64,000 bases of DNA from Candidatus Latescibacterota bacterium. GTDB lineage: Bacteria > Latescibacterota > UBA2968 > UBA8231. Shown piece after piece: positions 26,796-64,000 of the stretch. The DNA is taken from positions 4,640,001 through 4,704,000 of the forward strand of contig OZ241362.1 in the NCBI GenBank assembly GCA_965200315.1, read 5' to 3'. The notes beneath the pieces were generated by a model that was not told where the DNA came from, searched no databases, and worked only from the letters and a program-made list of their open reading frames with translations. The translations under genes and the position numbers were made by a program. How positions within the stretch are numbered: position 1 is the first letter of the stretch; every line of letters begins with the position of its first letter.

Positions 26796-26998
26796 ACGGT
26801 AATCACTAGCTCTTCGTAGGCATCGCCTACAAGGTCCAAGATCTCTTGGCGATGAAAATCAAGAGCCTCGTGGAGTGCCTCCCTAATACTTTCCAGCAAC
26901 TCCTCGCGGGTGCGTTCTTGGCAATTAACACCAGGAACGTTTTGAACCCACCCAATCCACCATTCCCCTTCTTGTTTTAGGATAGCAGTATATGTTTT
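26792..26998 (-). pseudogene. hicB: HicB antitoxin lacking its start codon
   Basis: KTYTAILKQEGEWWIGWVQNVPGVNCQERTREELLESIREAL...ITV*. Not in ORF track. Confidence 0.8.
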
Positions 26999-27958: not shown

Positions 27959-28157
27959 GGTTCTGATCTCTATTCGCGTGGATGTTCCTCAAGGACAAAA
28001 TGAGAAATCGGTACAGATTTCAAATTAAACCTTAAATATGTACCAATTTCAAGCCTGTCCTTGACATCATCAGTTATCGAAAATGTATTTCGCAGATGAA
28101 CCGGGCGGTCGAGACCGCCAACGAGCTTCGACCGGCACTTTTGAACCGAGAAAGAGA

Positions 28158-47179: not shown

Positions 47180-49162
47180 CTAAAACACAATGCTCGACAC
47201 GGCCTTGGAAATCAGTGCCAGCGCGATGGAAGACATGCCGACCAGCCCCATGCCGCACGAATAGCCGGCCAACAAAATCGGCGCGTACGCCCGCCAGCGC
47301 GCCTCGCCAAAGCGCTTCTGCAAGTGATAGCGGCCCAGCAAGGCACCGATGAAGTTGGGCAGCAGAAAGTGCGGCCACGCGCCCACACCACCGATGAATC
47401 CGTAGAACAGGGCGACCGGCCACCTCAAGAGCGCCAGCGCCCCCAAAATTCCCGCGCTGCCCAGCGCCCCCGTGAGCACGTATTCCCAGCGAATGATGGT
47501 CTTGATCAGCTCGTTGCCCCCCTCGGCGAGGGTGGATTTGGCCCAGAACGCCTGCATAGTGGCGTGGAAGGGCCAAAACTTCTGCACGTAGGGATAGGCC
47601 GACGAGGGAATCGGCCCGAGCTTCCAGATAAAGGACCAGAATATAAACGAGCAGACGAACATGATCAGCAAGGTTACGCCGGCCAGCTTGACGATGCTGC
47701 CGAAGTGGGTGCGGGTCAGTTCTAGTTGCTTGAAGGCCGCGGCTTCGTAGCCCCACTGGAAGAGCGGAATCGGCGCGAACCACACGGCCGCGCCCTGATA
47801 GCCCGACAGGTAAAAGGAGCCTTCGCGCAGATAGGGAAAGGACGCCCCTTGCGGCGAGCCGGTCAGGCCGATCATGCGCGCGCCGATGTACGAGTAAATC
47901 GGCGTCCACACAAAGCCGAAGAACGCGCTAATCCACCAAGGGAATTCCGGCACCAAATACCACACCAAGACCACGAAGCCGAGCGTACTCACCGCCCAGA
48001 TGCCCAAGGCGAGGGGGATGGGGATGTCGCCGCGGCCCTCGGGCAGGCCCTCGTCGCCGCCTTCGCGCTTGACCCCGCGCAAAGTCCACAGGGTCTTGCC
48101 CACCATGGCAAAACCCATCAGAGCCACCATGACTGCGCCGCCAATGGAGAAGCTAAGCCAGAAGTCGAAGGAATTGGCGATCTGCGTGGGGATCGCCGAC
48201 ATGCCCGGCTCCCAGGTGTGCAGTACGTCGTAGGCGTAGAGCACCGGGTTGACGAGGATGTTGACGAGAAAGGCCGCGGCAAAGGAGCCGACCACGATCC
48301 AAAAGGGCAAGACAAAGCCGACCATGACGTGTCCGAGGTCCGTGCCCAGGCCCATGATGCTGGCCGGCAGCATTTCCTTGAGCGAGACGGTCAGATCGAT
48401 AAATGGAATCGGCAAGATCGTCACGGTTTCAGTGAAGAAAATGCCCGAGATCGTGGGGATGACTACGTAGAACAGCCCCCAGATAATGCCGATAAAGGCC
48501 CCGACGCTAAAGACCTCCCACCGCCAGCCTTGGCTCGGTCCCGAGCTCTCGGCGAGGGCGGTCGCGCCGCCGGCCTGCACCGCTGCCAGCGGGTACGGCA
48601 GGCGCTCGATGTCGTTGGTGATGCGGAAGAGCACGTAGCCGAGGGATAGGCTGTTGATCTTCTGCATCACGATGACGGTCAGCAGCAGGGCGATGGGCTT
48701 GAGCCAAGCGGGGTGTAAAAAGGAGCGCCCCTCCAGCCCCGGCGAGCCGCGCGGAGGCACCACCCAATCGGGGATGTGCTGGTGCAAGCCGTCGGCTTGG
48801 GGCGATTGGATCAAGTACTGGTCCCAGATCAGCCCGCCAAAAGGCCCGCCGAACAGCTCGGCGCCGGTGCCCAACTTGCCGCCCATCATGACTAGGCCGC
48901 CAGCCACCCAGTAGAGAATGATCACCTCTTGGGTGCGCAGGCGCGCAAAGGAACGCTTGGCGATTTCGATGAAGAGGATGAGCGTCACCCACTCGGCACC
49001 GCCGGCCATGCTCTGGCCGGTCACCAACCCCAAATAGATGGCCCCGGGCAGCATGATGAAGCCAACGAAGAGCGCGGCCCACAAGGTCTTGAGGTTGAAA
49101 CCCGGTTCAAATTCGAGGTCTGCGGGAATGAGTTCGGGCGTTTTTTTGTCGTCTTTGGCCAT
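47180..49162 (-). CDS. OPT-superfamily-like polytopic membrane transporter
   Basis: 660 aa, roughly 15 hydrophobic segments, ERLPYPLA motif resembling the OPT LxFP segment. Confidence 0.65.
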   Translation of the reverse strand: MAKDDKKTPELIPADLEFEPGFNLKTLWAALFVGFIMLPGAIYLGLVTGQSMAGGAEWVTLILFIEIAKRSFARLRTQEVIILYWVAGGLVMMGGKLGTGAELFGGPFGGLIWDQYLIQSPQADGLHQHIPDWVVPPRGSPGLEGRSFLHPAWLKPIALLLTVIVMQKINSLSLGYVLFRITNDIERLPYPLAAVQAGGATALAESSGPSQGWRWEVFSVGAFIGIIWGLFYVVIPTISGIFFTETVTILPIPFIDLTVSLKEMLPASIMGLGTDLGHVMVGFVLPFWIVVGSFAAAFLVNILVNPVLYAYDVLHTWEPGMSAIPTQIANSFDFWLSFSIGGAVMVALMGFAMVGKTLWTLRGVKREGGDEGLPEGRGDIPIPLALGIWAVSTLGFVVLVWYLVPEFPWWISAFFGFVWTPIYSYIGARMIGLTGSPQGASFPYLREGSFYLSGYQGAAVWFAPIPLFQWGYEAAAFKQLELTRTHFGSIVKLAGVTLLIMFVCSFIFWSFIWKLGPIPSSAYPYVQKFWPFHATMQAFWAKSTLAEGGNELIKTIIRWEYVLTGALGSAGILGALALLRWPVALFYGFIGGVGAWPHFLLPNFIGALLGRYHLQKRFGEARWRAYAPILLAGYSCGMGLVGMSSIALALISKAVSSIVF

Positions 49163-49165
49163 GTG

Positions 49166-51100
49166 CTAGTTTCCGTACAGCGGGTGCCCCTGCCCGGGGA
49201 ACCAAATCATATCGATGCAAAAAGACAGGCCAATCGCGGTGAAATACCCGAGGATGAGGCCGATGAAAAAGGGCTGGGCGCGGTGGTAGAGGCCGATGCC
49301 GCCCGAGCGCATGATGGCCCATTTGGCCAGCCAAGAGACGAAGATCGAAAAGACGATAATGGTCATGGGGTAGGAACAGATGCCGACCGGCATGCCGATC
49401 GGGTGCAGGGGCCACCACGAGAAGCGGTAGCGCATAAAGGTCAGCAACCCCATTGCGCCCGCGCCGCTTAGGAGGTGGCCCAATCGCGTCCAGTCTGGAG
49501 CCTTGAGGTCGATTTTGCGCAGGCTTTCCACGTAGGGCACTTGCGAGCCGGTGCCGAATATCCACCCCCCGTAGTTGTACGCGCCAAAGGAGTAGCCCAT
49601 GTAGAGCGCGAAGGCCATAGAGACGACGAGGGCCACTAGCGCCGAGAAGAGTATGAAAAAGCTCAGCCAGCGGCGGCTTCGACCGGAGCTCAGCCGAGGG
49701 TTGCCGCGAATGTGGCCGGACACCTTGGCGCTGTTGGCCGCGGCGACCATGAAGAAGCCCTTGAGCTCGTGGTGCCAGCCATAGGACAGCCCCATGACGA
49801 TGTTGCTCTGCGCGGTGGCGTGCGGCCCAAGCGCGTAGCCAACGAAGGTTTGGCCAACTAGCGGGGCGCGGCTGAAGAGCAAGCCACCTTCCATGATGAT
49901 GCGCGTAATGCCGACGTAGAGGACCAAGGTGGCCAAGATGAAGAGCGCGACCGTGGGCGGGTTCATGCCGGCGCGCCACATCGAGAAGGCGATGTAGAGC
50001 AGGGCCAACCCGCCGCCAAAGACGATCATCCGGTAGGACATCAGCTCGTCGGTGTCGTCGATGTCCGCATCGTTGCGCATGGCTTTGCGCCAGATCGCGC
50101 CGAGGTGCCCACGCGCCATCCACAGCATCCCGACGACGAGGGCGATCAAGGCACCGAAAGACTGCCAGCCGATGCCGGGATGCCCAAGGGTGTACACGTC
50201 GCGGCCAGCGATCGCGTAGCCAAAGCGGTTGAACAGGCCCTGTTGCAGCATGGTGAGCGCGGTGAAAAACCACATGCTGAACGACACGTCGAGGTTGACA
50301 AAGTACGTGAAGCCGACGATGGCCCAGTTGACGTTGGTGTTGATGGCGGGAAATTCGCGGCCAATGCGGATGGGGTCAGAAAGATCGCGCGGGATGGGCG
50401 GGAAGGCCGGGGTAAAGTACGTGACCACGTTCCACATAACCATGCAGAAGGGCAGGGCAAAGCCGAACCAGAATGCCTTTTGGCGCACAAAGCTGGGCCA
50501 GTTAGAGCCGGGCGGCGGGGCGATGAGCTGTTGGGGCAATTCCATCAGGGCGAAGGGCAGGCGCTCGTATTCGACCCACTGCTTGCGCAGGGCCGCGACC
50601 ATGCACTGACACAAAAAGAAGATGGCCATCACCAAGCTGGTCCACCAAAAAAGCGGCACGATCCAAGCACCCCAAGGGATGGATTCGCCCGCGGGCAGGC
50701 CGTTGTAGAACCACTTGAGGGCAATCGCGTCGTTGGGCACCAGCCATTCCTCGATGTACTGCACCACCTTGCTCTGCCACTGATTTTCGGGCGAGGCAAA
50801 GTACTGGGGAGCGGCGATGACTGCGATCATGTACGTGGAAGTGCCCCAGGTGGGAATTGAGGCCCCCACTAAGGACATGATGAAGATGAGGCCCAGTTCG
50901 CTGGTGCTCAGGCCGCGCACTTTTAGCAGCGACTTGGCCGTGGCGTTGAGAAAGACCAAGCCGGTAAAGAGAAAGACCACGCTCAAGGGCAAATAGCTGA
51001 TCGCCCACTGCGAGGACTTGAGGATGAACATGCTGTACGGGGCCCCAATGTTGATCAAGATCACGAGGCCCAAGCCGATGAGGAAGGCGCGTGCGGTCAT
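49166..51100 (-). CDS. Polytopic membrane protein, DUF6785/DUF6784-type (OPT-related)
   Basis: 644 aa; IPWGAW..P, RKQWVEYERLPFAL, WWPLHPIG, PFFIGLILG. Family name from recall. Confidence 0.65.
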   Translation of the reverse strand: MTARAFLIGLGLVILINIGAPYSMFILKSSQWAISYLPLSVVFLFTGLVFLNATAKSLLKVRGLSTSELGLIFIMSLVGASIPTWGTSTYMIAVIAAPQYFASPENQWQSKVVQYIEEWLVPNDAIALKWFYNGLPAGESIPWGAWIVPLFWWTSLVMAIFFLCQCMVAALRKQWVEYERLPFALMELPQQLIAPPPGSNWPSFVRQKAFWFGFALPFCMVMWNVVTYFTPAFPPIPRDLSDPIRIGREFPAINTNVNWAIVGFTYFVNLDVSFSMWFFTALTMLQQGLFNRFGYAIAGRDVYTLGHPGIGWQSFGALIALVVGMLWMARGHLGAIWRKAMRNDADIDDTDELMSYRMIVFGGGLALLYIAFSMWRAGMNPPTVALFILATLVLYVGITRIIMEGGLLFSRAPLVGQTFVGYALGPHATAQSNIVMGLSYGWHHELKGFFMVAAANSAKVSGHIRGNPRLSSGRSRRWLSFFILFSALVALVVSMAFALYMGYSFGAYNYGGWIFGTGSQVPYVESLRKIDLKAPDWTRLGHLLSGAGAMGLLTFMRYRFSWWPLHPIGMPVGICSYPMTIIVFSIFVSWLAKWAIMRSGGIGLYHRAQPFFIGLILGYFTAIGLSFCIDMIWFPGQGHPLYGN

Positions 51101-51258: not shown

Positions 51259-51639
51259 TCAAACCTCCATGGTGGCCACGTCGTATTGCGAAATGTGGCC
51301 GTCCCGGGTCACGAGGATCAGCCCTTCGGCCCGGGCTTGAGCAATCAGGAACCGATCGAATGGATCCCGGTGGTGCATCGGGAGGTGGCCGGCCTGCTCA
51401 GCGTGATGGAACGTCAGCGGAAGGTGAGTGAAGCCCCTTTCCTCAACCAACACCGACAGATTGTCTGGAGCGACTAAGCGCCCCTTTGCCCGCTTGACCG
51501 CGATTTCCCACCCGGTGATGGCGCTGACGAAGACGTCATTGTGCGGATCGGCGATTGTGGCACGGATATCTTCGGCCAGTTGCTCAACATCGGATAGGCA
51601 CCACAAGAGGGTGTGGGTATCCAACAGTAGCCGCGACAT
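51259..51639 (-). CDS. vapC: PIN-domain toxin
   Basis: LLLDTHTLLW, SAITGWEI, HRDPFDRFLIAQA, TRD. Confidence 0.93.
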   Translation of the reverse strand: MSRLLLDTHTLLWCLSDVEQLAEDIRATIADPHNDVFVSAITGWEIAVKRAKGRLVAPDNLSVLVEERGFTHLPLTFHHAEQAGHLPMHHRDPFDRFLIAQARAEGLILVTRDGHISQYDVATMEV

Positions 51640-51641
51640 TG

Positions 51642-51896
51642 CTAGCGCTTATCTGGAAAAATTTTCGCGTTCTCCACTAGGTCCATGAGCTCTTCATCAG
51701 GATCGTCAAAGTCTGGAGACATCCAAATCTTTCCCTCTAGCCCACCAAGCTGACGTTCCTCTAGGCGATCCCGATACGGTTCCAGCCGCAAATACGGCTC
51801 GCCGGCCTTGGCGATCACAACTTCTTCCCCGGCCCAAGCCAACCTGCCTAGGCGCGAAAGTTGCGATTTGGCCTCGTGCATGTTCACCTTTAGCAT
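51642..51896 (-). CDS. Phd/YefM family antitoxin
   Basis: VNMHEAKSQLSRL, GEEVVIAKAG, SPDFD. Confidence 0.92.
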   Translation of the reverse strand: MLKVNMHEAKSQLSRLGRLAWAGEEVVIAKAGEPYLRLEPYRDRLEERQLGGLEGKIWMSPDFDDPDEELMDLVENAKIFPDKR

Positions 51897-51910
51897 TATA
51901 GTTCCTCCGA

Positions 51911-51955
51911 TAGCTAAGTTAAGCTAAGTCTATTTTTGTGGCGGGGCCGTGTCAA
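51911..51955 (-). promoter_or_regulatory. Sigma70 promoter and probable autorepression operator of the TA pair
   Basis: TTGACA (51955-50)-17 bp-TAGACT (51932-27). Repeated AGCTAAGT boxes at 51912-51929 overlap the -10 and start region. Confidence 0.75.
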
Positions 51956-51993
51956 GGGCGCACGGCAAGCGGCCTAGCGAGCGAACTTTGGTC

Positions 51994-54900
51994 CTACACC
52001 GCCGCCGGCTCAGCCCCGGCAAACGCCTTTTCCACCTCGTCCTGATACCCTTGGCGAATCCCGGGCGACAGAGTGCGCCAGACGAGGAATCGCTTGCGTA
52101 GCACGTTGAGGAACTTGCGATTCATCCGCTGCCAAGAGGCCACGTCGCCGCTGAGGCGCTCGATGTGGGTCTCGATCTTGTAGATGCGGTGCTCGCCGGT
52201 GGGAGTTGCCTGTAGGCGCACCTGCTGGCTGATCCCGAGGTCGTAGGGTGCCAGCCAAGTGCGCATGGCAATGGCGTAGGATGGCTCCGGCCCGTTGGTG
52301 GCGACGGATAGCTCGACGTCGCGGGCGATGAAGTCGCCGATGGAGCCTTCTCCATAGGCGGCAAAGACCGACTTGAGATACACGTACATGCTCGGCACTT
52401 CGGCCCCGCCGACCGTGAAGGGAAAGTCAAAGTGCCAGTGGTCGCCAACGGGCGGGGGGAATTGCCATTGCCGCGTCACGTCTGGGACGGCCATGTTGGC
52501 CGCCATGCGCGCTGGATACAAGGTCGATAAATAGACCGTGCCGATGACTACTACCGTAGCCCACACCGCCGAGAGCGACGAGTAGTTGAGAGTCAGGCCG
52601 GCGAGTAGCCCGTATTGCAGCATGAACAGATGGGCGATCTGGCCCAAGGCATAGCCGACCACCGCACCGAAAGTGGCAAAGACCGTGGATTCGGCCAAAA
52701 ACAGCAGACCGATGTGGCTGGGGGCCAAGCCGACGACGCTGTAGATGCCGATTTCGCGCACGCGCTCGTACACGGCTCCCATCATGGTATTGAGCACGAT
52801 CAAGGCAGCGATGATCACCGGCACCAAAAGCTGGCCGGCTCCGCTTATTTCGGTGGAGCCGATCGAGCTGTAGGCCACGACGCGGTCGCCTTGGCCGACG
52901 AACAAGGTCAGCGCCACCCGCGACATAAAGGACTCCACGCGCTGGACGAATTCCGGGTCGTCCGCGTCTGCGGCGATGGCGATGGAGCGCAGGCGGCCAT
53001 CCATGGCGCGGACGCGCTGGTAGGGTAAGAAGAGGGTGTTGATTACTTCGAGGTGGTTGAAGGTCTCGACCGCGGTGGCGGCCAAGGTGCGCGGGTCTTC
53101 GGTGCTTTCGCGGGTGATGAGGCCGGCGTCTTTGACCGTATCCACCGGTGTCAGGCGCTCGCCATCGAGATCGACGACCTCTTTTAGGGCCGCGCTGTCG
53201 AATAGGCCGATGACTTGGTACTCTTCTCCGTAGAGTGCGATGGAAGCCATGCCCACATCCTCGGCGCCAATGCCGACGAGCGCGGCTAGGCTGTCGGGCA
53301 AAATGACGGCCTGGTCGTCGCCGGTCGCAAAGAAGCGGCCAGCCGAGAGGTGCGCGTCGAGGCCCGTTACTTTGGCTTCAGCCGGCTGCAATCCCACCAA
53401 GCCGTGCGCGAAACTAGCCGCGCCGGTCGCGGTGGCGGCAAAGTCGATGTAGGCCCGTTCGGATTCGACCGGCGACAAGTACCAGGCGCGCGGCACGACC
53501 AAGCCGCGGTCGCCGAATGCGCTCTGCACGTAGTCCAAGATGGAATCCTGCATGCCGCGCCAAGCGCGGTCGCGGATGAGGCCGCCCTCGTATAGGGGCG
53601 AGGTATCGCGCGGCAGGCGATAGAAGTCGAAATTGGACTTGACCGAGGTAAAGGAATTGACGGTAAAGGTCAAAAAGGTCAGGGTCGCGGCTGTCAGCGC
53701 GGTGCGCAGGCGGCGTTTGCTCAAGTTGGAAATGCCCAACAGCACGGCCGCAAAACCTGCGGCAATGCGCCCCACGTCAGTCTCATGTACGCCCGCGGCC
53801 GCGCCCTTGCGCCGCTGCAAAAGCGCCTTGAAGCGAGTGACGACGATAAAGATGACGAGGACGCCTAAGGCGAGGATGACAAACGCGAGGAAGATGATGT
53901 ACGGCGAGCTGCTCAGCTTGAAGGCCGGATGGACGAAACGCAGTATCAGAAACACGAGGACGAAGATGCCGACAAAGCCGGCGATTTGCCGCCGCACGTC
54001 CGGGAAGCCGAAGAAAAACCGCTCGCAGAAGAAGGCAAAGGGCAACAGGAGCGCGAAGTAGAAAATCACCGCCCGGACCGCGTCGTTGGCGGTGGCCTTG
54101 ACTTGCGGGTAGATGCGGGCCTCTAGCCCGAGGGCGCGGCGCACTGCGCGTTGGTAGCCGGTGTAATCGAAGGCCGCGAGTTTGTCGCGGGCCTCAATCA
54201 GGGCCTCCCGCGCTCGATCGTGCATGGCTTGTAGCTGTTCGAGGACGATGCCGTGGCGCACCATTTGTTTGATCCGCGCCTCGTCGATGATCCAGATATC
54301 GCGGGCCGCCTGCAATGCCGGATAGGGGATGAGTCCCTGTTCAACGGGGAAGCCCTCGCCCTGTGCCCGCTCAATGGTCGCCAGATCGACGCGGGCTGGA
54401 TCGAGGTCGGCGAACAGGGTGGAGTCTGCGTTGGTGAGCATGTAGCGCACGCCGGCGAGTGCGCTCTCGCCGCCAAAGGCTCCTTCGCCGGCGAGGATTT
54501 TGACGCGGGTACCCGGCTCGGCAAACACCACGCCGGCCTGCACCACCCGGTCCTGCACTGCGCTCTGGTTTTCGATGTAGCTGAGGGAAAAAGAGCGCGG
54601 CGGCGCGTCGTTGGTGCCGAGGACGTTGACGCGGTCCATGGCCGACAGATAGCGCGGATCGACCACCTCCAAGAAGCTCAGGGCGCGGCAGCGAAACAGG
54701 ACCTGCAACATGCGGTTTTCCCACCAGCCATAGGGCTGGGTGCCCGGATAGGTTTTGTCGCCCTCTTCGCCGAGGTCGGGCGCGGAGACGATGCGCCCGT
54801 ATTCGTCGAGTTCAAAGGCTTGGATCCGGTTGGCAAAGCGGTTGCGCACGATGTCGAACTTGAAGTAGCCGCTCTCGTCTCCGTGCGTGGCCATCAGCGT

Positions 54901-56589
54901 GCGGACGCCGGCCACCGAGTTGGGGCCGGGCTGGAGATAGGTGACGAGGGCGTTGGGCACCGGGGCTTTGGGCACGGCAAAATTCACGTCGCGGTCAAAC
55001 CAATAGATGCTGCCCTCTAGGCTGTGCCCCCAATCGCGCAGGGTCAGCTTGGTGTCGTTGAAGAAATCTGGGTCGGAAGCGGCCTTGAGCATTAGCCCAG
55101 CTATGGTGCGGGTCTGTTCGGCGAGGTTGTCGAGCGCGACGAATTCGAGCCGGTCTAGGGGCGTATCGACGCGCTGGCGCAGTTGGTTGGGCGTGACAAA
55201 AGAAAGCGCCTCTTTGCCCACGAAAGCCGCGGCCTCGCTGTCGAGGCCCAGCCGCACGGGCATGAAGTTTTTCCACACCCGCTTCTGAGGGGCGATGGCG
55301 TCTTGGTAGCGAGCCGAGTCGGCGAAAATCTCGCGGCTATAGCGGGCAAAGCGCATCGCGTAGTGAGCCATCAAATTCTTCTGATAGTCGTCGTTGCGCC
55401 AAGCCGAGTTGTAGAACGTGCCCATGGTGAAACTGCCGACTTGGGGGCTGTGGCTGGCCAAGTCGAGGCCGACGAAGAGGCGGAAATCGATGCGTTCAGC
55501 CGGCGGAATCTGGTCGCGGAAATGCTCGCTTTTGCGTGCGTGGCGGTAGAGGAAATCGTTGACGCCGGCCAAGCCCTGAAAGTGCCCGGGGGTAGCCAAA
55601 AAGAGCACTGTGTAGCGGGTGCCTTCGGCGACGAGCAAACGCGCGATTTCGAGCAGCGCGGCCATGCCGGTCGCGCTCTCGGCCCCTGGAGCCAGCGCCG
55701 GGACGACCGAGATCGCGTCGTAGTGCGCTTGCAGGACGATGATTTGCTCGTCCCACTGCTGGATTTCGTGGCGCTGACCGCGCGGCATGTCCTCGGCCAA
55801 GCCGCGCAGGACGGCGAATATATTGCGCGCTTGGACCTGCTCCCAGTCCATGCGCGCTTCGAGATGCACTTGGGAGTCGCCGCTGCGCGCTTGCTGCCGC
55901 AGGATTTCCGCGCCCGCCGCTTCGACCCAAAAGCGCGGGATATCCACGGGCACTTGGAGGAATTTTTCCGCGGCCTCGCTGCGCGTGACGCGGCCATCGT
56001 CGTACAGCAAGACCGCTTGTGCGCCCAAGGCCCGCGCTTGGACATAGGAGTTGCCCGAGCCAAACCCCATCAGCGCAACGCTGCCGGCTAGCCGTTTCCC
56101 ATCCATCTCGGCTAAGCTGCCGCGCCCCAAGTCGATGAGGTGGCCGGAGATGCCGCCCGGCGGCAGGGACGGCGAGCGCACGTGGTTGGGCCACAATCCG
56201 TAGATGGGGATGGTTTCGTCCGCGCCGATCAAGCGCAGCCGACCGCCGCGATCTAGGGGGACGGAAAGAGGGAAAGATTCGCTGGTGACTTGCAGGCCGA
56301 GGCGGCGGAATTCCCCTTCGATATAGCGAGCCGCGTTAGTGGCCCCGGCATAGCCGGTAACGCGGGACGAGTCCGCGGTGAGGATGCGGAGGTGGTGCTC
56401 TAAGTCGGCGGCGTTTATTTGCGCGACCGCTTCGCGCAGCGAGGGCGCTTCGTCGGTCGCTGGGGCTTCGCGCAGGGGTTCCCAGCCAATGGCCCGTTCA
56501 ATCCAGCGGGAAATGGTGGCTGGATCAAAGACCGTAACCGATAGGAGGAAGAAGGCCGCGGTGGCGAATAGGAGGGATTTGGTCAGCAT
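51994..56589 (-). CDS. 1531-aa fusion: PA + M28 peptidase-like ectodomain, extra TMs, MacB/FtsX-like permease
   Basis: SRVTGY, AHYDA..PGAES..GMAALLE; then three TMs, RRLRTALT, a periplasmic domain, and NTMMGAVYERVREIGI...GL...LFLAES (FtsX signature). Confidence 0.8.
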   Translation of the reverse strand: MLTKSLLFATAAFFLLSVTVFDPATISRWIERAIGWEPLREAPATDEAPSLREAVAQINAADLEHHLRILTADSSRVTGYAGATNAARYIEGEFRRLGLQVTSESFPLSVPLDRGGRLRLIGADETIPIYGLWPNHVRSPSLPPGGISGHLIDLGRGSLAEMDGKRLAGSVALMGFGSGNSYVQARALGAQAVLLYDDGRVTRSEAAEKFLQVPVDIPRFWVEAAGAEILRQQARSGDSQVHLEARMDWEQVQARNIFAVLRGLAEDMPRGQRHEIQQWDEQIIVLQAHYDAISVVPALAPGAESATGMAALLEIARLLVAEGTRYTVLFLATPGHFQGLAGVNDFLYRHARKSEHFRDQIPPAERIDFRLFVGLDLASHSPQVGSFTMGTFYNSAWRNDDYQKNLMAHYAMRFARYSREIFADSARYQDAIAPQKRVWKNFMPVRLGLDSEAAAFVGKEALSFVTPNQLRQRVDTPLDRLEFVALDNLAEQTRTIAGLMLKAASDPDFFNDTKLTLRDWGHSLEGSIYWFDRDVNFAVPKAPVPNALVTYLQPGPNSVAGVRTLMATHGDESGYFKFDIVRNRFANRIQAFELDEYGRIVSAPDLGEEGDKTYPGTQPYGWWENRMLQVLFRCRALSFLEVVDPRYLSAMDRVNVLGTNDAPPRSFSLSYIENQSAVQDRVVQAGVVFAEPGTRVKILAGEGAFGGESALAGVRYMLTNADSTLFADLDPARVDLATIERAQGEGFPVEQGLIPYPALQAARDIWIIDEARIKQMVRHGIVLEQLQAMHDRAREALIEARDKLAAFDYTGYQRAVRRALGLEARIYPQVKATANDAVRAVIFYFALLLPFAFFCERFFFGFPDVRRQIAGFVGIFVLVFLILRFVHPAFKLSSSPYIIFLAFVILALGVLVIFIVVTRFKALLQRRKGAAAGVHETDVGRIAAGFAAVLLGISNLSKRRLRTALTAATLTFLTFTVNSFTSVKSNFDFYRLPRDTSPLYEGGLIRDRAWRGMQDSILDYVQSAFGDRGLVVPRAWYLSPVESERAYIDFAATATGAASFAHGLVGLQPAEAKVTGLDAHLSAGRFFATGDDQAVILPDSLAALVGIGAEDVGMASIALYGEEYQVIGLFDSAALKEVVDLDGERLTPVDTVKDAGLITRESTEDPRTLAATAVETFNHLEVINTLFLPYQRVRAMDGRLRSIAIAADADDPEFVQRVESFMSRVALTLFVGQGDRVVAYSSIGSTEISGAGQLLVPVIIAALIVLNTMMGAVYERVREIGIYSVVGLAPSHIGLLFLAESTVFATFGAVVGYALGQIAHLFMLQYGLLAGLTLNYSSLSAVWATVVVIGTVYLSTLYPARMAANMAVPDVTRQWQFPPPVGDHWHFDFPFTVGGAEVPSMYVYLKSVFAAYGEGSIGDFIARDVELSVATNGPEPSYAIAMRTWLAPYDLGISQQVRLQATPTGEHRIYKIETHIERLSGDVASWQRMNRKFLNVLRKRFLVWRTLSPGIRQGYQDEVEKAFAGAEPAAV

Positions 56590-56660
56590 TAAACGGGTGC
56601 CGGACAGAAAAAGCGGCAGGCCGCGGCCTGCCGCTAGGCTATGCAGCTTGGCCGACTCGG

Positions 56661-57425
56661 CTAGTTGGCCGCCAACTTGTCGATGTTTTTGAGCTTCTTA
56701 ATGTCGCGCTTGAAGCGGAAGCGGAGGTCAATAGTCTCCAGCGGTTCGTTGCGGAAGTTGTAGCGCAGCCCAAATTCGGGAATCTCGACGGCGATTTCGG
56801 CGACGTCGTCGTGAATCTTGGGGAAGACCACGTAGCCTTCGACCTCTTGCCCTGAGAAGCAAAACTCGTCGTCTGGGTACTTGGCTTGGTTGTAGAGGTC
56901 GCGGCGCTCGTCGAAGCGCATATAGCCCAAACCGTTGAAGGCTAGGGGGAAACGCCGGAAGTACTCCTCTACATCGTAACTGCCCCAAGGATAATAGTGC
57001 CGCCCATTGGCCGACTCCACGTTCACCATCAGCGGATCGAACTTAACTTTGGGATATTCGTAGTTTTTGACCGTGATCTTGAAGATGGACAAGCGCTGTG
57101 GTGCTTGGCCCGTGCGCGGATCGATCCAATTGCCATAGGTGAATGGGTTGGACGGTAGCTCGTCAGTCGGGCCGCTGGCATTGGTAGATTGGGCCGGGTA
57201 CTGGCGATTGATCTCCTCGTCGTTCATGGGCCGCACGGACACTTCGAGGCGGTTCTGCACGAAGGTGACCGTGCCGTCGTCGAGGATTTTCATGCTCGAT
57301 CCTTGAACATCGGTCTGCTGCTGGGTCACCTCAAAGGGCTGAAACTGCCCGGGAACGAGGTAGTGGCCACAGCCCAACAAAAGGGCCGCAGCGACGAGGA
57401 TGGAAATTTTTTTGCAAGCGTACAT
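56661..57425 (-). CDS. Hypothetical lipoprotein
   Basis: Start MYACKK after a GAGGAG RBS; lipobox LLGC; beta-rich body. Confidence 0.75.
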   Translation of the reverse strand: MYACKKISILVAAALLLGCGHYLVPGQFQPFEVTQQQTDVQGSSMKILDDGTVTFVQNRLEVSVRPMNDEEINRQYPAQSTNASGPTDELPSNPFTYGNWIDPRTGQAPQRLSIFKITVKNYEYPKVKFDPLMVNVESANGRHYYPWGSYDVEEYFRRFPLAFNGLGYMRFDERRDLYNQAKYPDDEFCFSGQEVEGYVVFPKIHDDVAEIAVEIPEFGLRYNFRNEPLETIDLRFRFKRDIKKLKNIDKLAAN

Positions 57426-57447
57426 GGAACACTCCTCTCTGACAAGC

Positions 57448-58755
57448 TCATAGCTCGACTGGATTGGCAGCCTGTCTGCGTCGGGAGACAAATTCCCCCA
57501 ATTGCCCTTCCTCCACCACCACGACCGCGGCGTATTTTTCGCGCAATTGCTCAATGTAGCGGTCGAACAGGGGCGCGGCTTGGGCATCGCGCAGATCGCG
57601 TGCGACTTGCGCTTGTAGTTCCCGCCCGAGCGCGCCTGAGCGGGCGTAGCGTTGCGCGTTGGCCTCGTAAAAGGTGCGCACCTCGGCAGGGTCAAGCTGA
57701 ATATGTGCGAAAATTTCTCGCTCCCACAAGGCTTGGATTAGCTTCTGTTGGCGCACTTTTGCGCGGCGCGATTCCAACTCGGCGTCCAGACCGTGCTTGT
57801 GCGCCTCCTGCGGTAGAATCTGGTCGGCGACAAAGGCCCGCGTCACCTTGAATCCGAGGGTGCTGACATCGGTCGGCTGCGACCCGGCGGCTGCCCCAAG
57901 CCGGGCGAGGGCCTGCTGGTAGTCCCCGACGCTCCAGGCGCCCGCAGCACTGCGAACCAACCGCACCTCCGGCCGCGCCGCGCCCGCGGCGACCTGCCGC
58001 AACGCGGCCGTATCTAACTGCACGGTGTGCTGGCTGGTCAACCGCTCTAGATAGGCTAGGTTCGCCTGTTGCTTCTTGTGCCGAGTTAGGGCCGCTTCCA
58101 CGAGCGGGCGGCGGTCTGCCAACGAGACGGTGCGCTCGGCTGCAATGGCTACCACTAAAAATTGACCGTCAGTTTCTACCAATTCAACGGTCCCCACTTC
58201 CTGCAGGAACAGGGCGGCTGTGCGCACGTCGCCCGCGTTGAGCGCGTTGAGCCACCCGCTCTCGCTCCACTCCCCGTCCAAATCCAATCCCTCTTGAGCC
58301 TTTCTAAGTGCCGCCAAGGCTGCGGCCCGCTCGCGCACAGGCAAACGCCGCAAGCGAATTTCGCGGCCCCCGCCCGATTCGGCGAAGAATTCCGCTAGCT
58401 CCGTTTCCGTATAAGTCAACTGCTCGCCCATCTCGCGTGTGAGCAAAGCCTCGACCCGTTCTTTGCGCTCCCAAGCCGCCATCTCATCCGCGACCGCTTC
58501 GTCTAGCCCTTGGGCCTGCGCTTCGAGCAGCAGCAGCTCTTTGTCGATGAGGGCCTGCAATTGGCGACGCCAATCCGCAAGCGGCTGGGCTTGGCTGCCG
58601 GCGGGTAGCTTTTCTAGCGCAGCCGCAAAATCCCGCTCGCTAATCGCGGCCTCGCCCACTCGGGCTAAGATCGCCGACGCGCTTTCGGGCGGCGCGTCGG
58701 CGCAGGCCATAAAGCCCAAGGCTAAGATGACCGTCTGCGGCTTTAGAAGCTCCAT
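57448..58755 (-). CDS. SurA/PrsA-like chaperone lipoprotein with degenerate PPIase region
   Basis: Signal ending FMAC; ILARVGEAAIS, LIDKELLLLEAQAQGLD, EVRTFYEAN, YIEQLREKY. The chaperone-like module occurs twice. Confidence 0.65.
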   Translation of the reverse strand: MELLKPQTVILALGFMACADAPPESASAILARVGEAAISERDFAAALEKLPAGSQAQPLADWRRQLQALIDKELLLLEAQAQGLDEAVADEMAAWERKERVEALLTREMGEQLTYTETELAEFFAESGGGREIRLRRLPVRERAAALAALRKAQEGLDLDGEWSESGWLNALNAGDVRTAALFLQEVGTVELVETDGQFLVVAIAAERTVSLADRRPLVEAALTRHKKQQANLAYLERLTSQHTVQLDTAALRQVAAGAARPEVRLVRSAAGAWSVGDYQQALARLGAAAGSQPTDVSTLGFKVTRAFVADQILPQEAHKHGLDAELESRRAKVRQQKLIQALWEREIFAHIQLDPAEVRTFYEANAQRYARSGALGRELQAQVARDLRDAQAAPLFDRYIEQLREKYAAVVVVEEGQLGEFVSRRRQAANPVEL

Positions 58756-61361
58756 CCCCTTCTTTCGGCTGGCCGACCGCCCAAGCGCTCTTCTTCTAGC
58801 CCTGCATAGAGCTCGATGAAGGCAATGGTGTTGCTCACGTCTTGGTCGGTGAGGGTGGCAAAGTTGATGTCGTTGACCTGAAAGCCAACGTTGGATGTGA
58901 CGCTGTAGCCTTGGTACTGGACCCGATTGGTGTACTGCACGGTGAACACCTTGCCGATGAAGTCGTCGATGTACTCGGGCGGCAATGGGTCGGGGATCGC
59001 CTCGGCATTGCGGAAAATTATGGCCTCCACTCCGACCTCGACGCGGCTTCTCGTCAGCACTGGGAACACGGCCGACAAGGAGAAAATTTCGCTCAACTCG
59101 TTGATCTCAAGCTGGACGGTGCGCGGTTGGGTGCGCTTGCGCCACATGTTTTTCCAGCGCGGGATCAAGGTGATGTTGCGCCCAATGGAAAACGGATAGT
59201 CCGCTTTGTTGATCACTCCGTAGAACGCGCTATCGCGGAGGCGGTCGGCTGTTTCGTCGCGCTGCTTGAAGTGATCGAGGCGGAACTTGTTGACAAAGGT
59301 CAGGTTGCCGCGGGTGTACTTGTAGCCGACGAAGCTCTGATTGACGATGGTGTTGCCGGTGATTAGGGGGTCGTCAAAAGGTTGCAAGCCGCCAATGGAG
59401 CCAGGGCGCTGCACCCATTGCAGCAGGTTGTCGGCGATGTTGTCCTCAACGGACTTGAGCATGTGGAAGATTTCAAACTTGCCCATCCCAGAGATGTCGC
59501 GCACCGCGCTGAGCAATGCGTATATGGCTGTTGACCGCTCTTGGCCGGCGATCAGCCACTCGCGATTGCGGCCTACGGTGAGATTAACCCCGGGGTAAAT
59601 CTCGGCCCCCCCGTATGCGTTCCAGCCGCGATGCCCCTTGCGGTAGGGATAGTCGGCCTCGTCGTCGTTTTCAAAGCGATCCACTACGGTATTGTGGTTC
59701 ATATCGACGCCGAAGAGGAAGTCAGGTGGGTCGATATAGTGGCGCAAGAATGGCTCTTCGTAGTCCGGGGTGAGGTTGGAGTTTTCGTTGAAGTCCGAGA
59801 GCAGGTCGTTGTTTTCGTCGAGGCCGGGGAAGACGGCGTTGTCGCCGCCGCCCGGATCGCCAAAGCGCGGCCAATCCACGAGTTGGTCTTGATCGTCGTT
59901 ATCGTCGATGTACTCGAACCAGTTCTGGCGCTGGTTTTCGTAATCCACGACATCGTTTTGGTCGGTGATGTACCCGCGCGTGGTGTACCCGTAATCCATG
60001 CTGAACACCTCGCCGTAGCCAAAGTAGCGGCCGGTGCGGCGCGTGGCGTTGACGAACCAAGCATCGGCCGTGCGGCTGCTCTTTTTGAGGTTGCTCAGTT
60101 TCTGGATGTTGATGTTGGGATAGCGCTGAAACTGGGTGTTGCGTGCGAATTCGCCGCGCACCTCCAAGCCCCATATATCCTCAATGGTCAAATCGACGCT
60201 GGCGATTTGGTTGGCCGAGGGCAGGCCGTAGTCAAAGCGGACGACGCGCTGGTTGGTGTTGTCGCGCACATTGCCTTCTGAGCGAGTGACCGGCAAGAAG
60301 ATGGGCTGGCCGTTGATATTAGTCTGCAAGTTGGAGGTTATCTCCACTCGGTAGTCGTTGGAGAGCACCATGGCGTAGCTGACCTTTTGTACCACCAACG
60401 GATCGGGCACTCGGTAGCGGAGGAGGATCGGTGCCTCTTCGAGGGCTTCGAGAAAGCCCTCGCGCTGGCGGCCCCCCTCAATAGTAGGATTGACCGAGGT
60501 CTCTTGGCCATCGACGATCATCTGCGCCGAAAAGAACAAAGCGCCGGAGCCGTCGCCGGGCGAGTCGTCAGAGATGCGGATGACGATTTCGGTGACGTTG
60601 CCTGAATTCTGGCTGCTGGTCAGCAAGCCAGCGCGCGAATTTTCCGAGAAATTGCTGCTCGCCGAGCCGAAATTAGTATTGACATACGTGACTCCTAAGC
60701 CCATGAAGTCGCCGACTTGGGCAGTGCCGCGCAGGCCGATGAAGTTGGTGAAGTCCGTGTCTTGCACTCGGTTCCCCCCCTGTGCCAACCGCACCGGCTC
60801 ATTGACGCGCGACAGCAGCACGGTGGCCTCGTATTTGTCGGACGCAAAGTCCCATTGGACGCCGTTGAAGCGCGAGCGACTGAAGGTCAGCGGGGTCAGG
60901 GTCGTGCGGATGTAATCGCCGACGGTCAGAGCAGAGTAGTACTGGCCCTTGGAGTCGGCGGCCACCAGTAGGTTTTGGAACCAAGAGCCAAAGCGGCTAT
61001 CTTTGAAGACCGAGCTGCCAAAGGCCAGTGGCTGCTGTTGACGCCACTCGTAAATGCGCCAGCCCCGGGTGATCCAGTTGCCGAAGATGTCGTACTGGCC
61101 CGTGCCTTCTAACTGCGTGTTGACATAGCGCTGAAACGGTTCCTTGGCGTAGTTGGTGTACTTGTAGCCTCCCCAGTGGTAGATGTAGTAGAGGTCTTGG
61201 GGCACGTACCACTTGCGCAGGGTCGGGACCAATGGGTCGAAGCCATCGATCCTAACTTGCGAGGTGGCACCGCGCTCGCGCCCCGGGGTTGCCGCTCGGA
61301 CGCTGGACGCTGCAACAACTAGGACCAGCAGGGCAACCCCCCAGAACATAACTTTGTGCAT
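58743..61361 (-). CDS. Large exported protein, putative outer-membrane beta-barrel with Asp-rich Ca-binding-like loops
   Basis: Signal peptide; aromatic, amphipathic beta-like segments; DNDDQD, DENNDLLSD, DMNHNTVVD; terminal WSF. Confidence 0.55.
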   Translation of the reverse strand: MHKVMFWGVALLVLVVAASSVRAATPGRERGATSQVRIDGFDPLVPTLRKWYVPQDLYYIYHWGGYKYTNYAKEPFQRYVNTQLEGTGQYDIFGNWITRGWRIYEWRQQQPLAFGSSVFKDSRFGSWFQNLLVAADSKGQYYSALTVGDYIRTTLTPLTFSRSRFNGVQWDFASDKYEATVLLSRVNEPVRLAQGGNRVQDTDFTNFIGLRGTAQVGDFMGLGVTYVNTNFGSASSNFSENSRAGLLTSSQNSGNVTEIVIRISDDSPGDGSGALFFSAQMIVDGQETSVNPTIEGGRQREGFLEALEEAPILLRYRVPDPLVVQKVSYAMVLSNDYRVEITSNLQTNINGQPIFLPVTRSEGNVRDNTNQRVVRFDYGLPSANQIASVDLTIEDIWGLEVRGEFARNTQFQRYPNINIQKLSNLKKSSRTADAWFVNATRRTGRYFGYGEVFSMDYGYTTRGYITDQNDVVDYENQRQNWFEYIDDNDDQDQLVDWPRFGDPGGGDNAVFPGLDENNDLLSDFNENSNLTPDYEEPFLRHYIDPPDFLFGVDMNHNTVVDRFENDDEADYPYRKGHRGWNAYGGAEIYPGVNLTVGRNREWLIAGQERSTAIYALLSAVRDISGMGKFEIFHMLKSVEDNIADNLLQWVQRPGSIGGLQPFDDPLITGNTIVNQSFVGYKYTRGNLTFVNKFRLDHFKQRDETADRLRDSAFYGVINKADYPFSIGRNITLIPRWKNMWRKRTQPRTVQLEINELSEIFSLSAVFPVLTRSRVEVGVEAIIFRNAEAIPDPLPPEYIDDFIGKVFTVQYTNRVQYQGYSVTSNVGFQVNDINFATLTDQDVSNTIAFIELYAGLEEERLGGRPAERRGWSF

Positions 61362-61451
61362 AACAACCCTCCCTTAGGCGTTCACTTGTGCTTGGCGCGG
61401 CTAGCCGCGCAGTGAAAAGATCGGCGGCCGAGATGGCCCGGCCCATGTAGG

Positions 61452-63233: not shown

Positions 63234-63274
63234 CGCTGTTCCTTTTTGCTGTAAGGTGGCAAAAGTAGGCTCCT

Positions 63275-64000
63275 TCAGTAGGCTACCGGCACGATTCGCT
63301 GCACCGTCTCGGTCTGGGAGTCGCCGGCAATCTCGATTTGCACTAGATAGGTCCCTGGACTCACGAGCGCACCGGTGCCGTCGCGGCCATCCCAAGTGAA
63401 GCGGTAGCGCCGAGCCAGCCCATCGCCGCTGTCGAGGGCGCGCACGTTGCGGCCGGCCAAATCGTAGATGTAGACCCGGATTGGCCGCGGCGTCACCAGC
63501 TTGAGTGCGTCGAATTCAATGGTCAACTCGTCGCCGACCCCATCGCCATTGGGCGTCAGCACGAGCGTCGAGAGGGCGACGTTAGCTAGCAGCAGGTCGT
63601 TGACCGGCAGTTGCACCGAGACGGATTCGCTCGGCACATTGGCTTTGACGTCGCCTTGGTCAACGAGTTGGCGCACGTCGGTGCCGAGGTTGCTGTTGCC
63701 GAGGAAGAGGTCAAAGCGCGTCTGATTTTGGTAAATGGTACTGCTGAACGAGAGTTCGATTATCTCCGAGCGGCGGACTGTGGCTGGTAGATCGACGACA
63801 AAGCCCTCGGCGACCGGAGTAATTGCGAACTCCTCCACCGGCTCATCCCCCAACTTCAGGCTGGTGAAATTGACGGGCACGGACGCGGCCATGGTCAGGC
63901 GGTCAAAGCCCTGCGAGCGCCCGCCAAAGATCGGCAGGACAAAGTATGTAAAGTCCTTTTTGACGCCCGGTTCGACTTGGCTGGGGAAGACCTCGGCGCG
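63275..64000 (-). CDS. Paralogous exported protein with C-terminal FlgD-Ig-like domain, 5'-truncated by window edge
   Basis: Frame open to 64000 (RAEVFPSQVEPGVKKDFTYFV..GFD); LTPNGDGVGD, YDLAGRNV, WDGRD, SPGTY, terminal PVAY. Confidence 0.8.
   Translation of the reverse strand, partial: RAEVFPSQVEPGVKKDFTYFVLPIFGGRSQGFDRLTMAASVPVNFTSLKLGDEPVEEFAITPVAEGFVVDLPATVRRSEIIELSFSSTIYQNQTRFDLFLGNSNLGTDVRQLVDQGDVKANVPSESVSVQLPVNDLLLANVALSTLVLTPNGDGVGDELTIEFDALKLVTPRPIRVYIYDLAGRNVRALDSGDGLARRYRFTWDGRDGTGALVSPGTYLVQIEIAGDSQTETVQRIVPVAY

Follow-up and report, generated by a model that had tools for sequence, protein, structure and literature searches.

ATP-binding cassette (ABC) systems of type VII are seen as machines for pushing or extracting material outward, or for switching on periplasmic enzymes. 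In transferrin receptor 1 (TfR1), nicalin, nicastrin and GPAA1, an ectodomain of peptidase fold serves as a receptor or as a subunit of a complex. FtsEX with EnvC or PcsB, and YbbAP with TesA, are described as a type VII core coupled to a periplasmic hydrolase or hydrolase-like partner (PMC12646458, PMC7668044, PMC5985334). The current work concerns a gene, here called the giant, in which a peptidase-shaped head and a permease of this kind are found in one chain. It lies in Candidatus Latescibacterota bacterium (GCA_965200315.1, OZ241362.1), whose genome is a single 5.36-Mb contig with a completeness of 94.7%. The window, that is, the whole stretch of DNA analysed, comprises 64,000 nt from 4,640,001 to 4,704,000.

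We propose that the giant forms the large subunit of an envelope module that occurs throughout Latescibacterota. The explanation that we favour, tentatively and at somewhat less than an even chance, is that its head is a non-canonical ligand-binding domain, which serves OPT-like permeases and which a shared type VII ABC engine drives in trans. The parts of the giant are given below in window coordinates; TM denotes transmembrane.

51994..56589, minus strand: the whole giant gene (P0001), 1531 amino acids, stop codon included (open reading frame list and translation)
56512..56589, minus strand: hydrophobic N-terminal anchor or signal segment, residues 1-26 (hydropathy; model helix 2-20)
55045..56454, minus strand: ectodomain of PA and M28 fold, residues 46-515 (VIA-align, Foldseek, Pfam PF04389)
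54085..55044, minus strand: beta-rich domain (residues about 520-720) and three long stalk helices (757-826) toward the membrane (model secondary structure)
53812..54084, minus strand: three extra TM helices, residues 836-926, the helices themselves at about 838-920 (hydropathy; helices 2-29, 35-56 and 66-101 of the C-terminal model)
52504..53772, minus strand: MacB/FtsX-type permease unit, residues 940-1362 (Pfam FtsX, Foldseek, profile against MacB 5lil)
51997..52503, minus strand: conserved alpha/beta cytoplasmic tail, residues 1363-1531, 169 residues (invariant residues; model strands 554-650 and helices 653-694)

Architecture and spread of the giant family

A preliminary description had read the protein as a PA/M28-like ectodomain followed by three extra TM helices, a MacB-like permease and a cytoplasmic tail, and this anatomy is borne out by Pfam, AlphaFold2 models and hydropathy. 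Peptidase_M28 (PF04389) matches residues 280-413 with 34.0 bits against a cut-off of 21.3, and FtsX (PF02687) matches residues 1258-1366 with 44.5 bits against 25.5; the NCBIfam matches, to MacB, FtsX and aminopeptidase models, are all weak. Hydropathy and the models place the whole ectodomain at residues 27-835 and a basic cytoplasmic loop between the extra TM helices and the four-TM MacB unit. The N-terminal segment (residues 1-26) has no lipobox Cys. Within the permease unit the order is an amphipathic helix, TM1, a periplasmic domain (986-1245), TM2, the coupling helix VYERVREIGIYSVVGLAP (1273-1290), TM3 and TM4. The cytoplasmic tail gave no match in Pfam and no usable match in ESM-Atlas.

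Two AlphaFold2 models of the halves of the giant were built from a 62-row family alignment, one of residues 1-830 (predicted local distance difference test score, pLDDT, 93.2; predicted template modelling score, pTM, 0.90) and one of residues 831-1531 (pLDDT 87.3, pTM 0.66). Superposition of the first on active M28 enzymes, which the preliminary description had suggested as a check, was carried out with VIA-align and gave a close fold: with the Aeromonas aminopeptidase 1rtq_A, 267 of 291 residues were aligned at Z 28.7 and a root-mean-square deviation of 2.5 A. Together with the PF04389 match above cut-off, this places the giant in the M28 fold and sequence family. The PA insert is present as well; 392 residues are aligned to the PA-domain aminopeptidase 2ek8_A (Z 28.0; Foldseek E 5e-24), and the phmmer alignment spans residues 63-345 of the giant, insert included. 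PF02225 (PA) is sub-threshold in relatives, at 20.3 and 19.8 bits against 23.9. Further matches of the same model are to transferrin receptor 1 (Z 25.0), glutaminyl cyclases (Z about 24) and the GPI-transamidase chain 7w72_A (Z 18.6). The comparison with nicalin made earlier has gained sequence support, as the family profile matches nicalin at E 9.8e-12. The rows of the structure search with the N-terminal model span residues 46-515 only and give no fold for the beta-rich domain (residues about 520-720); those with the C-terminal model were taken up by its MacB part and give none for the tail.

The C-terminal model matches MacB, LolC/E, YtrF, HrtB, YbbP and BceB with Foldseek E values of 8e-11 to 1e-3 (8e-11 to 1e-6 for the first four), including MacB 5gko (8e-11), LolCDE 9rld and YtrF 9o9x. 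By sequence, the giant matches YtrF 9o9x at E 1e-6, and the family profile matches MacB 5lil at E 1.1e-15. The strands and helices of the domain between TM1 and TM2 occupy residues 982-1249 in the model, and the isolated periplasmic domains 3ftj, 5udf and 5f9q (of MacB, LolE and YknZ) are matched by Foldseek. PF12704 is among the precomputed annotations of some giant homologs and is present in two paralogs of this genome (B and F, described below). Three features of a type VII permease are found: an FtsX C-terminal domain of three TM helices, a large periplasmic domain between TM1 and TM2, and a coupling helix between TM2 and TM3. The base of the giant is a complete MacB-type permease unit with its coupling helix intact and no ATPase of its own.

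The giant is a large protein family, not a single fusion. A word-index search, in which 7997 candidates were scored, gave at least 732 homologs at E<=1e-3; the best 120 of them are 1146-1625 residues long, all but two exceeding 1400, and where they are named they are annotated as 'FtsX-like permease family protein', 'M28 family peptidase' or 'hypothetical'. In an exhaustive search with residues 1-830, the cluster representatives numbered 1797 at E<=1e-3, proteins labelled Gemmatimonadota and Planctomycetota among them, and 589 of them reached E<=1e-30; most of the top 150 matches fit the full-length family profile from end to end. At E<=1e-20, the giant is present in 155 of the 168 sampled genomes and in 13 of the 14 families of the phylum, and in none of the 13 genomes of the remaining family (f10). 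A full-text literature search yielded no paper on the giant family, and likewise none on DUF6785 or DUF6784, the families of its partner discussed below.

Some members are larger still. In three proteins of 2769-3053 residues (P0125, P0127, P0129), an additional 1000-1200 residues separate the N-terminal anchor from the M28-like domain, and P0181 (2120 residues) has about 660 extra residues at its C-terminus, as in the DUF6785 fusion described below. Contigs from RNA libraries (four metatranscriptomic libraries of one study) match the region of the giant at 99% identity or more, and a single contig of 4743 nt corresponds to 51886-56628, close to the limits of the gene. These contigs mark presence in the libraries; DNA carry-over is possible, so they are not proof of transcription, strand or operon structure.

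The pocket of the M28-like head

Canonical M28 peptidases bind their metals with five ligands (His, Asp, Glu, Asp, His), and a catalytic Glu precedes the ligand Glu (G-x-E-E). The corresponding motifs of the giant are as follows.

55717..55728, minus strand: AHYD, residues 288-291, where HxD is expected; His289 is mostly Tyr in relatives, Asp291 is invariant (phmmer against 2ek8, column counts)
55675..55689, minus strand: PGAES, residues 301-305, where GAxD[DN] is expected; Glu304 stands for the bridging Asp (phmmer against 2ek8, column counts)
55573..55590, minus strand: PGHFQG, residues 334-339, where GxEE is expected; His336 stands for the catalytic Glu and Phe337 for the ligand Glu (phmmer against 2ek8, column counts)
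55462..55464, minus strand: Asp376 in GLDLAS, assigned as the retained fourth ligand (Asp) by motif order only (conserved in 97 of the 102 remote representatives defined below)
55234..55245, minus strand: LDSE, residues 449-452, where SDHE is expected; Ser451 is at the position of the last His ligand (weak profile alignment, column counts)

The motifs AHYD, PGAES and PGHFQG are thus found where the preliminary description had placed them, and its claim that the Glu-Glu pair and one Asp ligand have been lost is upheld by phmmer against the solved 2ek8. In this alignment, H-x-D falls on H289-Y-D291, E304 takes the place of the bridging Asp in GAxDD, and H336-F337 that of the two Glu in GAEE. The last ligand His, within S-D-H-E of 2ek8, was aligned with Ser451 in a second profile stretch of 2.8 bits, and from this weak alignment of S-D-H-E with L-D-S-E the last His would also be replaced, by Ser451, a change that the preliminary description does not list. 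Asp376 presumably corresponds to Asp179 of the Aeromonas enzyme, an equivalence taken from motif order rather than from superposition. In place of the five canonical ligands, the giant therefore has His289, Glu304, Phe337, Asp376 and, by the weak last alignment, Ser451, with His336 in place of the catalytic Glu.

Conservation of these positions was counted in two sets. The close set comprises 119 sequences, the query included, down to about 49% identity (2 of 121 proteins, shorter than 1400 residues, were dropped); the remote set holds 102 sequences, each the full-length representative of a cluster at 50% identity (out of 149 proteins, the 47 shorter than 1300 residues were dropped). Asp291 is kept in 119/119 close and 100/102 remote sequences, and His336 in 119/119 and 99/102. 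Position 304 is Glu in 116 and Asp in 3 of the close sequences, and Glu in 73 and Asp in 14 of the remote ones, so that, of the two substitutions for which an alignment of homologs had been recommended, GH is conserved and GAE mostly so. Glu452 is kept in 82 of the 102 remote sequences. Other positions are more variable: position 289 is Tyr in 56, His in 38, Phe in 24 and Asn in 1 of the close set and Tyr in 78 and His in 8 of the remote set, and position 337, Phe in all 119 close sequences, is Phe in 54, His in 11, Gly in 11, Cys in 10 and Tyr in 7 of the remote ones. The Glu-Glu pair occurs in 0/119 close and 0/102 remote sequences. The seven giants of this genome share [YH]-Y-D, GAE, [GA]-H-[FH] and LDL.

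Two outcomes that the preliminary description had named as fatal to its reading, namely close homologs that keep GEE and an intact two-zinc site, are thus not found, the Glu-Glu pair being absent from both sets and the canonical ligand set being impossible from the aligned residues. As judged from these alignments, the head of the giant cannot form the canonical co-catalytic zinc site, and this trait is family-wide. A conserved polar cluster of Asp291, Glu304, His336, Asp376 and Glu452 is kept instead. Because the replacement residues are themselves conserved, a rewired pocket in use fits better than simple decay, and an M28-like pocket that is in use is more likely than a decayed one. For the same reason, the new function of the pocket is open to testing by mutation.

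One such use would be catalysis of an altered kind. The head may be an active hydrolase that holds one metal by Glu304, Asp376 and Glu452, employs His336 as general base, and trims peptides or another amide substrate in the periplasm before uptake by the OPT-like permeases. The near-invariance of His336, Asp291 and Asp376 and the presence of the same residues in all seven old paralogs speak for it; moreover, the fold is near that of active enzymes, as seen with 1rtq, and single-metal enzymes of M28 fold exist, the glutaminyl cyclases. Against this stand three of the five canonical ligand positions, which are non-liganding in the family consensus (Tyr289, Phe337, Ser451), the free variation of position 337 among Phe, His, Gly, Cys and Tyr, and the metal positions proposed for this enzyme: position 304 is neither Glu nor Asp in about 14 of the 102 remote sequences, and position 452 is not Glu in 20 of them. 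We consider an active hydrolase rather unlikely.

Coupling helix and a candidate engine in trans

The helix VYERVREIGIYSVVGLAP aligns with the coupling motif of MacB and YtrF. The stretch around its motif E-R-x-R-E-I-G (residues 1251-1300) is the best conserved of the giant, with a mean column conservation of 0.84, and in the close set of 119, conservation of E1275, R1276, E1279 and I1280 is at least 97% at each position. All seven paralogs have a recognisable motif, although R/E 1278-1279 are substituted in paralogs C, D and E. No cognate ATPase is fused to the permease or found beside it. An ABC_tran domain is absent from the window's open reading frames of 200 residues or more, none of the seven giants has a LolD-like ATPase gene within 12 kb, and the nearest ABC match to any paralog is 14 kb away.

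A partner for this helix is suggested by three deep-branching families, in which a cluster of same-strand genes has the order DUF6785/6784, TPR protein, giant, permease of the 660-residue type, a protein of about 300 residues to which no family was assigned, PqqD-like protein, mini-FtsX, and LolD/MacB-type ATPase. The genomes are G030 and G026 (f12), G024 (f11) and G008 (f8); in G008, a 959-residue protein replaces the permease. The mini-FtsX proteins of these clusters are 228-233 residues long and FtsX-only, with almost no periplasmic loop. In the present genome, the reciprocal best matches are two adjacent genes at 4512261-4513750, about 180 kb from the window giant and with unrelated flanking genes: an ATPase of 256 residues, LolD-like (74% identity), and a mini-FtsX of 233 residues (58% identity). 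Orthologs of the mini-FtsX (E<=1e-33) are present in 148 of the 155 giant-bearing genomes of the phylum; in f10, the best match reaches only 1e-13 to 1e-17 in 13 of 13 genomes. For the earlier proposal that a type VII ABC core moves the head, a candidate pair acting in trans is offered by the operon in three families and by the phyletic pattern; no ATPase is present in the window.

Complex prediction for the base of the giant (residues 930-1400) with mini-FtsX gave a score of 0.29 against a mark of 0.32, without control runs, and speaks neither for nor against binding. In G030 the mini-FtsX is not the cell-division FtsX, since that genome contains, in addition to the mini-FtsX, a separate and near-canonical FtsX-like gene of 239 bits; against the FtsX equivalog models the mini-FtsX scores 26-31 bits, with cut-offs of 225-255. 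FtsX matches of 214-242 bits were seen in G030 and in three f10 genomes. In the present genome no canonical FtsX was found (best TIGR00439 match 29.5 bits), which at a completeness of 94.7% does not prove its absence, and here the mini-FtsX may still be the cell-division FtsX. Another candidate motor, the orphan ATPase P0273, was also rejected, since the ATPase at 4512261-4512977 shares 74% identity with the operonic one of G030, as against only 56% for P0273. The latter, LolD/MacB-type and 249 residues long, lies at 1047274-1048023 of contig C1 on the minus strand (L063:5274-6023), beside uvrB and with no permease gene adjoining, and its orthologs (82-98% identity) are confined to f1, the window's own family.

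The absence of an ATPase from the window and from the surroundings of all seven paralogs can also be taken at face value. The FtsX part may be a passive scaffold without an ATPase, the giant serving the OPT-like permease as a static subunit, accessory or gating, in the manner of nicastrin or nicalin, and the mini-FtsX/ATPase pair being an unrelated transporter that happens to lie close by in a few lineages. The fusion of one giant with DUF6785 calls for no ATPase, nicalin is among the matches of the family profile, and the conserved cytoplasmic tail could stand in for a nucleotide-binding domain. This reading leaves unaccounted for the motif E-R-x-R-E-I-G, which contacts the ATPase in solved relatives and is the best conserved part of the protein, kept in all paralogs; the operon link in three families and the agreeing phyletic pattern also argue against it. 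A passive scaffold appears decidedly unlikely.

Partner permeases and neighbouring genes

Downstream of the giant lie two permease genes, which are its constant partners.

49166..51100, minus strand: partner permease with DUF6785 and DUF6784, 644 amino acids (P0123; Pfam 4e-107 and 1.5e-24)
47180..49162, minus strand: second partner permease, OPT-like, 660 amino acids (P0122), a distant DUF6785 homolog (synteny, hhalign, ESM-Atlas)

Conservation of the neighbourhood was counted by blastp at 1e-5 against the window proteins over 54 related loci, mostly from metagenome-assembled genomes of Latescibacterota, several of which end at contig ends. The 660-residue gene is downstream of the giant in 49 of the 54 loci, being directly adjacent in the most distant ones (about 50% identity), and the DUF6785+DUF6784 gene in 38. 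The FtsX matches reveal seven giant frames in this genome, the paralogs (A to F) being 34-52% identical to the window copy. A DUF6785/6784 gene adjoins the giant in five of the seven: in A, C, D and F it is directly upstream, and for the window copy it is downstream. In paralog B, the giant and DUF6785+DUF6784 form one frame of 2119 residues, with M28, MacB_PCD, FtsX, DUF6785 and DUF6784; paralog E is the sole one of the seven without an adjacent DUF6785 copy. At least 14 DUF6785 copies are present in this genome.

The two partner families are homologous by profile comparison: hhalign relates the 660-residue family to the DUF6785 family with a probability of 95.7% (E 9.9e-9, 200 columns), and pairwise BLASTP of P0122 with P0123 saw no relation (E 0.92). 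In ESM-Atlas, the 660-residue protein lies near 'peptide transporter' clusters (score 0.98), with PF03169 in 15-33% of the members; for the ESM-Atlas neighbours of the partner genes the share is 11-33%. At paralogs A and F, the partner genes also carry C-terminal PF03169 matches of 22-23 bits, short of the cut-off of 25.8. P0122 and P0123 themselves have no PF03169 match and no Pfam OPT or NCBIfam model above threshold, and for P0122 no Pfam family at all is above it; since no curated model passes, 'OPT-like' remains a lead. A search of PDB sequences gave no meaningful match for P0122, for an 872-residue protein encoded upstream of the giant or for a 294-residue operon protein; a match of P0122 to designed armadillo proteins was dismissed as a 23-residue low-complexity alignment.

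Several further arrangements involve these families. Paralog B lies at 1296121-1302480 of C1 on the minus strand (L058:6121-12480), and two FG-GAP/ASPIC proteins follow it. A stand-alone DUF6785 gene at C1:5068742-5070643 (plus strand) is 3 kb from a double-FtsX permease (1100-residue frame) with its own LolD-like ATPase, at 5073880-5077733 on the minus strand (L070), a hint at possible pairing of DUF6785 proteins with ordinary type VII ABC systems as well. The PqqD-like gene (PF05402, 1.5e-10 to 7.5e-12) has weak matches to lasso-peptide PqqD models. The protein of about 300 residues and the PqqD-like protein follow the OPT-like gene at paralog F (L062:10954-12322, plus strand; genome 4032954-4034322) and in the deep-branching operons (L065:11235-12533).

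The PqqD-like gene bears on the direction of transport. It is conceivable that the module exports, extracts or processes a peptide, a lipopeptide or an envelope component, with the PqqD-like chaperone presenting a peptide in the cytoplasm, the OPT-like permease carrying it across and the head handling it outside. All structural relatives of the base (MacB, LolCDE, HrtBA, YbbAP, BceAB) act outward or extract from the membrane, and a PqqD-family protein is encoded in the ancestral operon and at paralog F. However, the PqqD gene is absent from most paralog clusters, and in the clusters examined no precursor peptide, radical-SAM or other enzyme of ribosomally synthesised and post-translationally modified peptide (RiPP) formation, adaptor or outer-membrane duct gene was seen. 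The seven giants and at least 14 DUF6785 copies resemble, instead, the expansions of nutrient uptake. An exporting or extracting module is, in our estimate, quite unlikely.

Between the giant and the DUF6785 gene, a further pair of genes is found.

51259..51896, minus strand: VapBC-like toxin-antitoxin pair (PIN domain 1.1e-16, weak Phd/YefM)

The pair consists of a PIN toxin of 126 residues and an antitoxin of 84 residues with weak Phd/YefM and DUF2281 matches. A PIN homolog occurs in 16 of the 54 loci and a recognisable antitoxin in one, and in the other loci the giant is directly beside DUF6785; the pair is an insertion and not part of the giant system. Upstream, four genes on the same strand (56661-63395, minus) are retained beside the giant in 30-33 of the 54 loci, all of them from closer relatives. 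They encode a 647-residue protein with an F5/8 type C domain and a type IX secretion system (T9SS) C-terminal domain; the 872-residue protein, without family, which at 77-96% identity is more conserved than the giant; a SurA_N-like protein of 435 residues; and a protein of about 264-344 residues, also without family. T9SS-tagged secreted proteins are thus encoded upstream of the window giant, and they are found at paralog E as well. Farther away in the window, an AbiEii/AAA_21-type ATPase of 581 residues (12495-14240, minus strand) and a DUF4143/AAA_14 ATPase (26925-27998, minus strand) are possibly defence or mobile genes unrelated to the giant.

Proposed function and comparison with known systems

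The giant is an inner-membrane protein that places its PA and M28-fold head in the periplasm on the beta domain and helical stalk. In the reading that we favour, driven in trans, the head would bind a ligand, most likely a peptide or a protein terminus, and would not be a standard di-zinc aminopeptidase. ATP hydrolysis would come from one shared pair, the 233-residue mini-FtsX and the 256-residue LolD-like ATPase at 4.512 Mb, which may assemble with any one of the seven into a heteromeric type VII core. Mechanotransmission would then move the head, and cargo would be delivered or released to the adjacent OPT-like permeases for uptake. Taken together, the permease partners, the multi-copy expansion and the nearby T9SS-tagged proteins make capture of peptides or proteins for uptake the most economical function. 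A more specific form is an ABC-assisted secondary importer, in which one engine per genome is shared by up to seven interchangeable giants, each handing its own peptide or protein cargo to its own OPT-fold permease; this would be the first type VII uptake system, and we regard it as possible but doubtful.

Several points weigh against a ligand-binding head that is driven in trans and serves uptake. The OPT assignment of the partners rests on language-model features and sub-threshold PF03169 matches. Known type VII ABC systems export or extract, and to our knowledge none serves an importer. PqqD-like proteins are a peptide chaperone type of RiPP biosynthesis, which points to export as much as to import and keeps a part in maturation conceivable. 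Catalysis would be equally compatible with His336 and the acidic cluster being so strictly conserved. As for the engine, the operon link is found in only three families of one phylum, and since the co-occurrence of the giant with the mini-FtsX comes from the f10 clade alone, it amounts to one evolutionary event. Moreover, 7 of the 155 giant-bearing genomes are without a strong mini-FtsX match; five of them are 60-84% complete, and the remaining two, G034 (89%) and G032 (75%), are both of f14, where the orthologs diverge more.

The giant is annotated in the source records only as an FtsX-like permease, an M28 peptidase or a hypothetical protein. Since 155 of the 168 sampled genomes of the phylum carry it, and this one has seven copies, it is likely to be central to feeding or to envelope building in these uncultured bacteria. 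A peptidase-shaped head in the same chain and a tie to permeases resembling peptide transporters would widen the picture of type VII systems, and the motor of the giant appears to sit elsewhere in the genome.

With MacB, LolCDE, FtsEX, YtrEF, HrtBA and YbbAP-TesA, the giant has in common a four-TM unit of FtsX type, a large periplasmic domain that separates TM1 from TM2, and a conserved coupling helix. It differs from these known type VII systems in the hydrolase-like head carried in the same chain, the three extra TM helices and the new cytoplasmic tail, and in that its ATPase is neither fused nor adjacent and OPT-like permeases are its constant companions. Unlike in those systems, moreover, the second permease subunit is likely a mini-FtsX of 230 residues with almost no periplasmic domain. 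The ADOP permeases of Acidobacteria (TIGR03434) are orphan FtsX-type proteins with a duplicated unit, many per genome and without an adjacent ATPase. The giant is likewise FtsX-type, numerous and without an adjacent ATPase, and it lacks the duplication of the FtsX unit; TIGR03434 gave no match to the giant at E<=0.01, and 37-39 bits for the mini-FtsX against a cut-off of 622.

The partner genes resemble the OPT family (PF03169) in their length of 640-680 residues, their polytopic nature and their ESM-Atlas neighbours named peptide transporters, and differ from it in that none is above the Pfam or NCBIfam thresholds. We know of no OPT protein that works with an ABC-type accessory.

The head itself is closest to the PA-domain M28 aminopeptidases, namely 2ek8 of Aneurinibacillus, BSAP (6hc6) of B. 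subtilis, PaAP (8ac7) of P. aeruginosa and AAP (1rtq) of Aeromonas, with which it shares the fold (Z 26-29), the PA insert and the order and spacing of motifs. Unlike these enzymes, it has His for the catalytic Glu, Phe for the ligand Glu, Ser for the last His and Glu for the bridging Asp, with the first His mostly Tyr in relatives, and its ectodomain is tethered to the membrane at both ends.

TfR1, nicalin, nicastrin and GPAA1 resemble the giant in having an N-terminal anchor followed by a PA and M28-like ectodomain without the zinc ligands; no TFR_dimer domain was detected in the giant by Pfam. As a subunit of a membrane complex in the manner of nicalin or nicastrin, the giant agrees in fold and in loss of ligands, the complex being implied by gene fusion and adjacency only. 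It differs from all four in being bacterial, in the strong conservation of pocket residues that have not drifted, and in being joined to an ABC-type permease. The giant may be regarded as the bacterial equivalent of nicastrin, nicalin and the transferrin receptor, in which a peptidase fold became a receptor.

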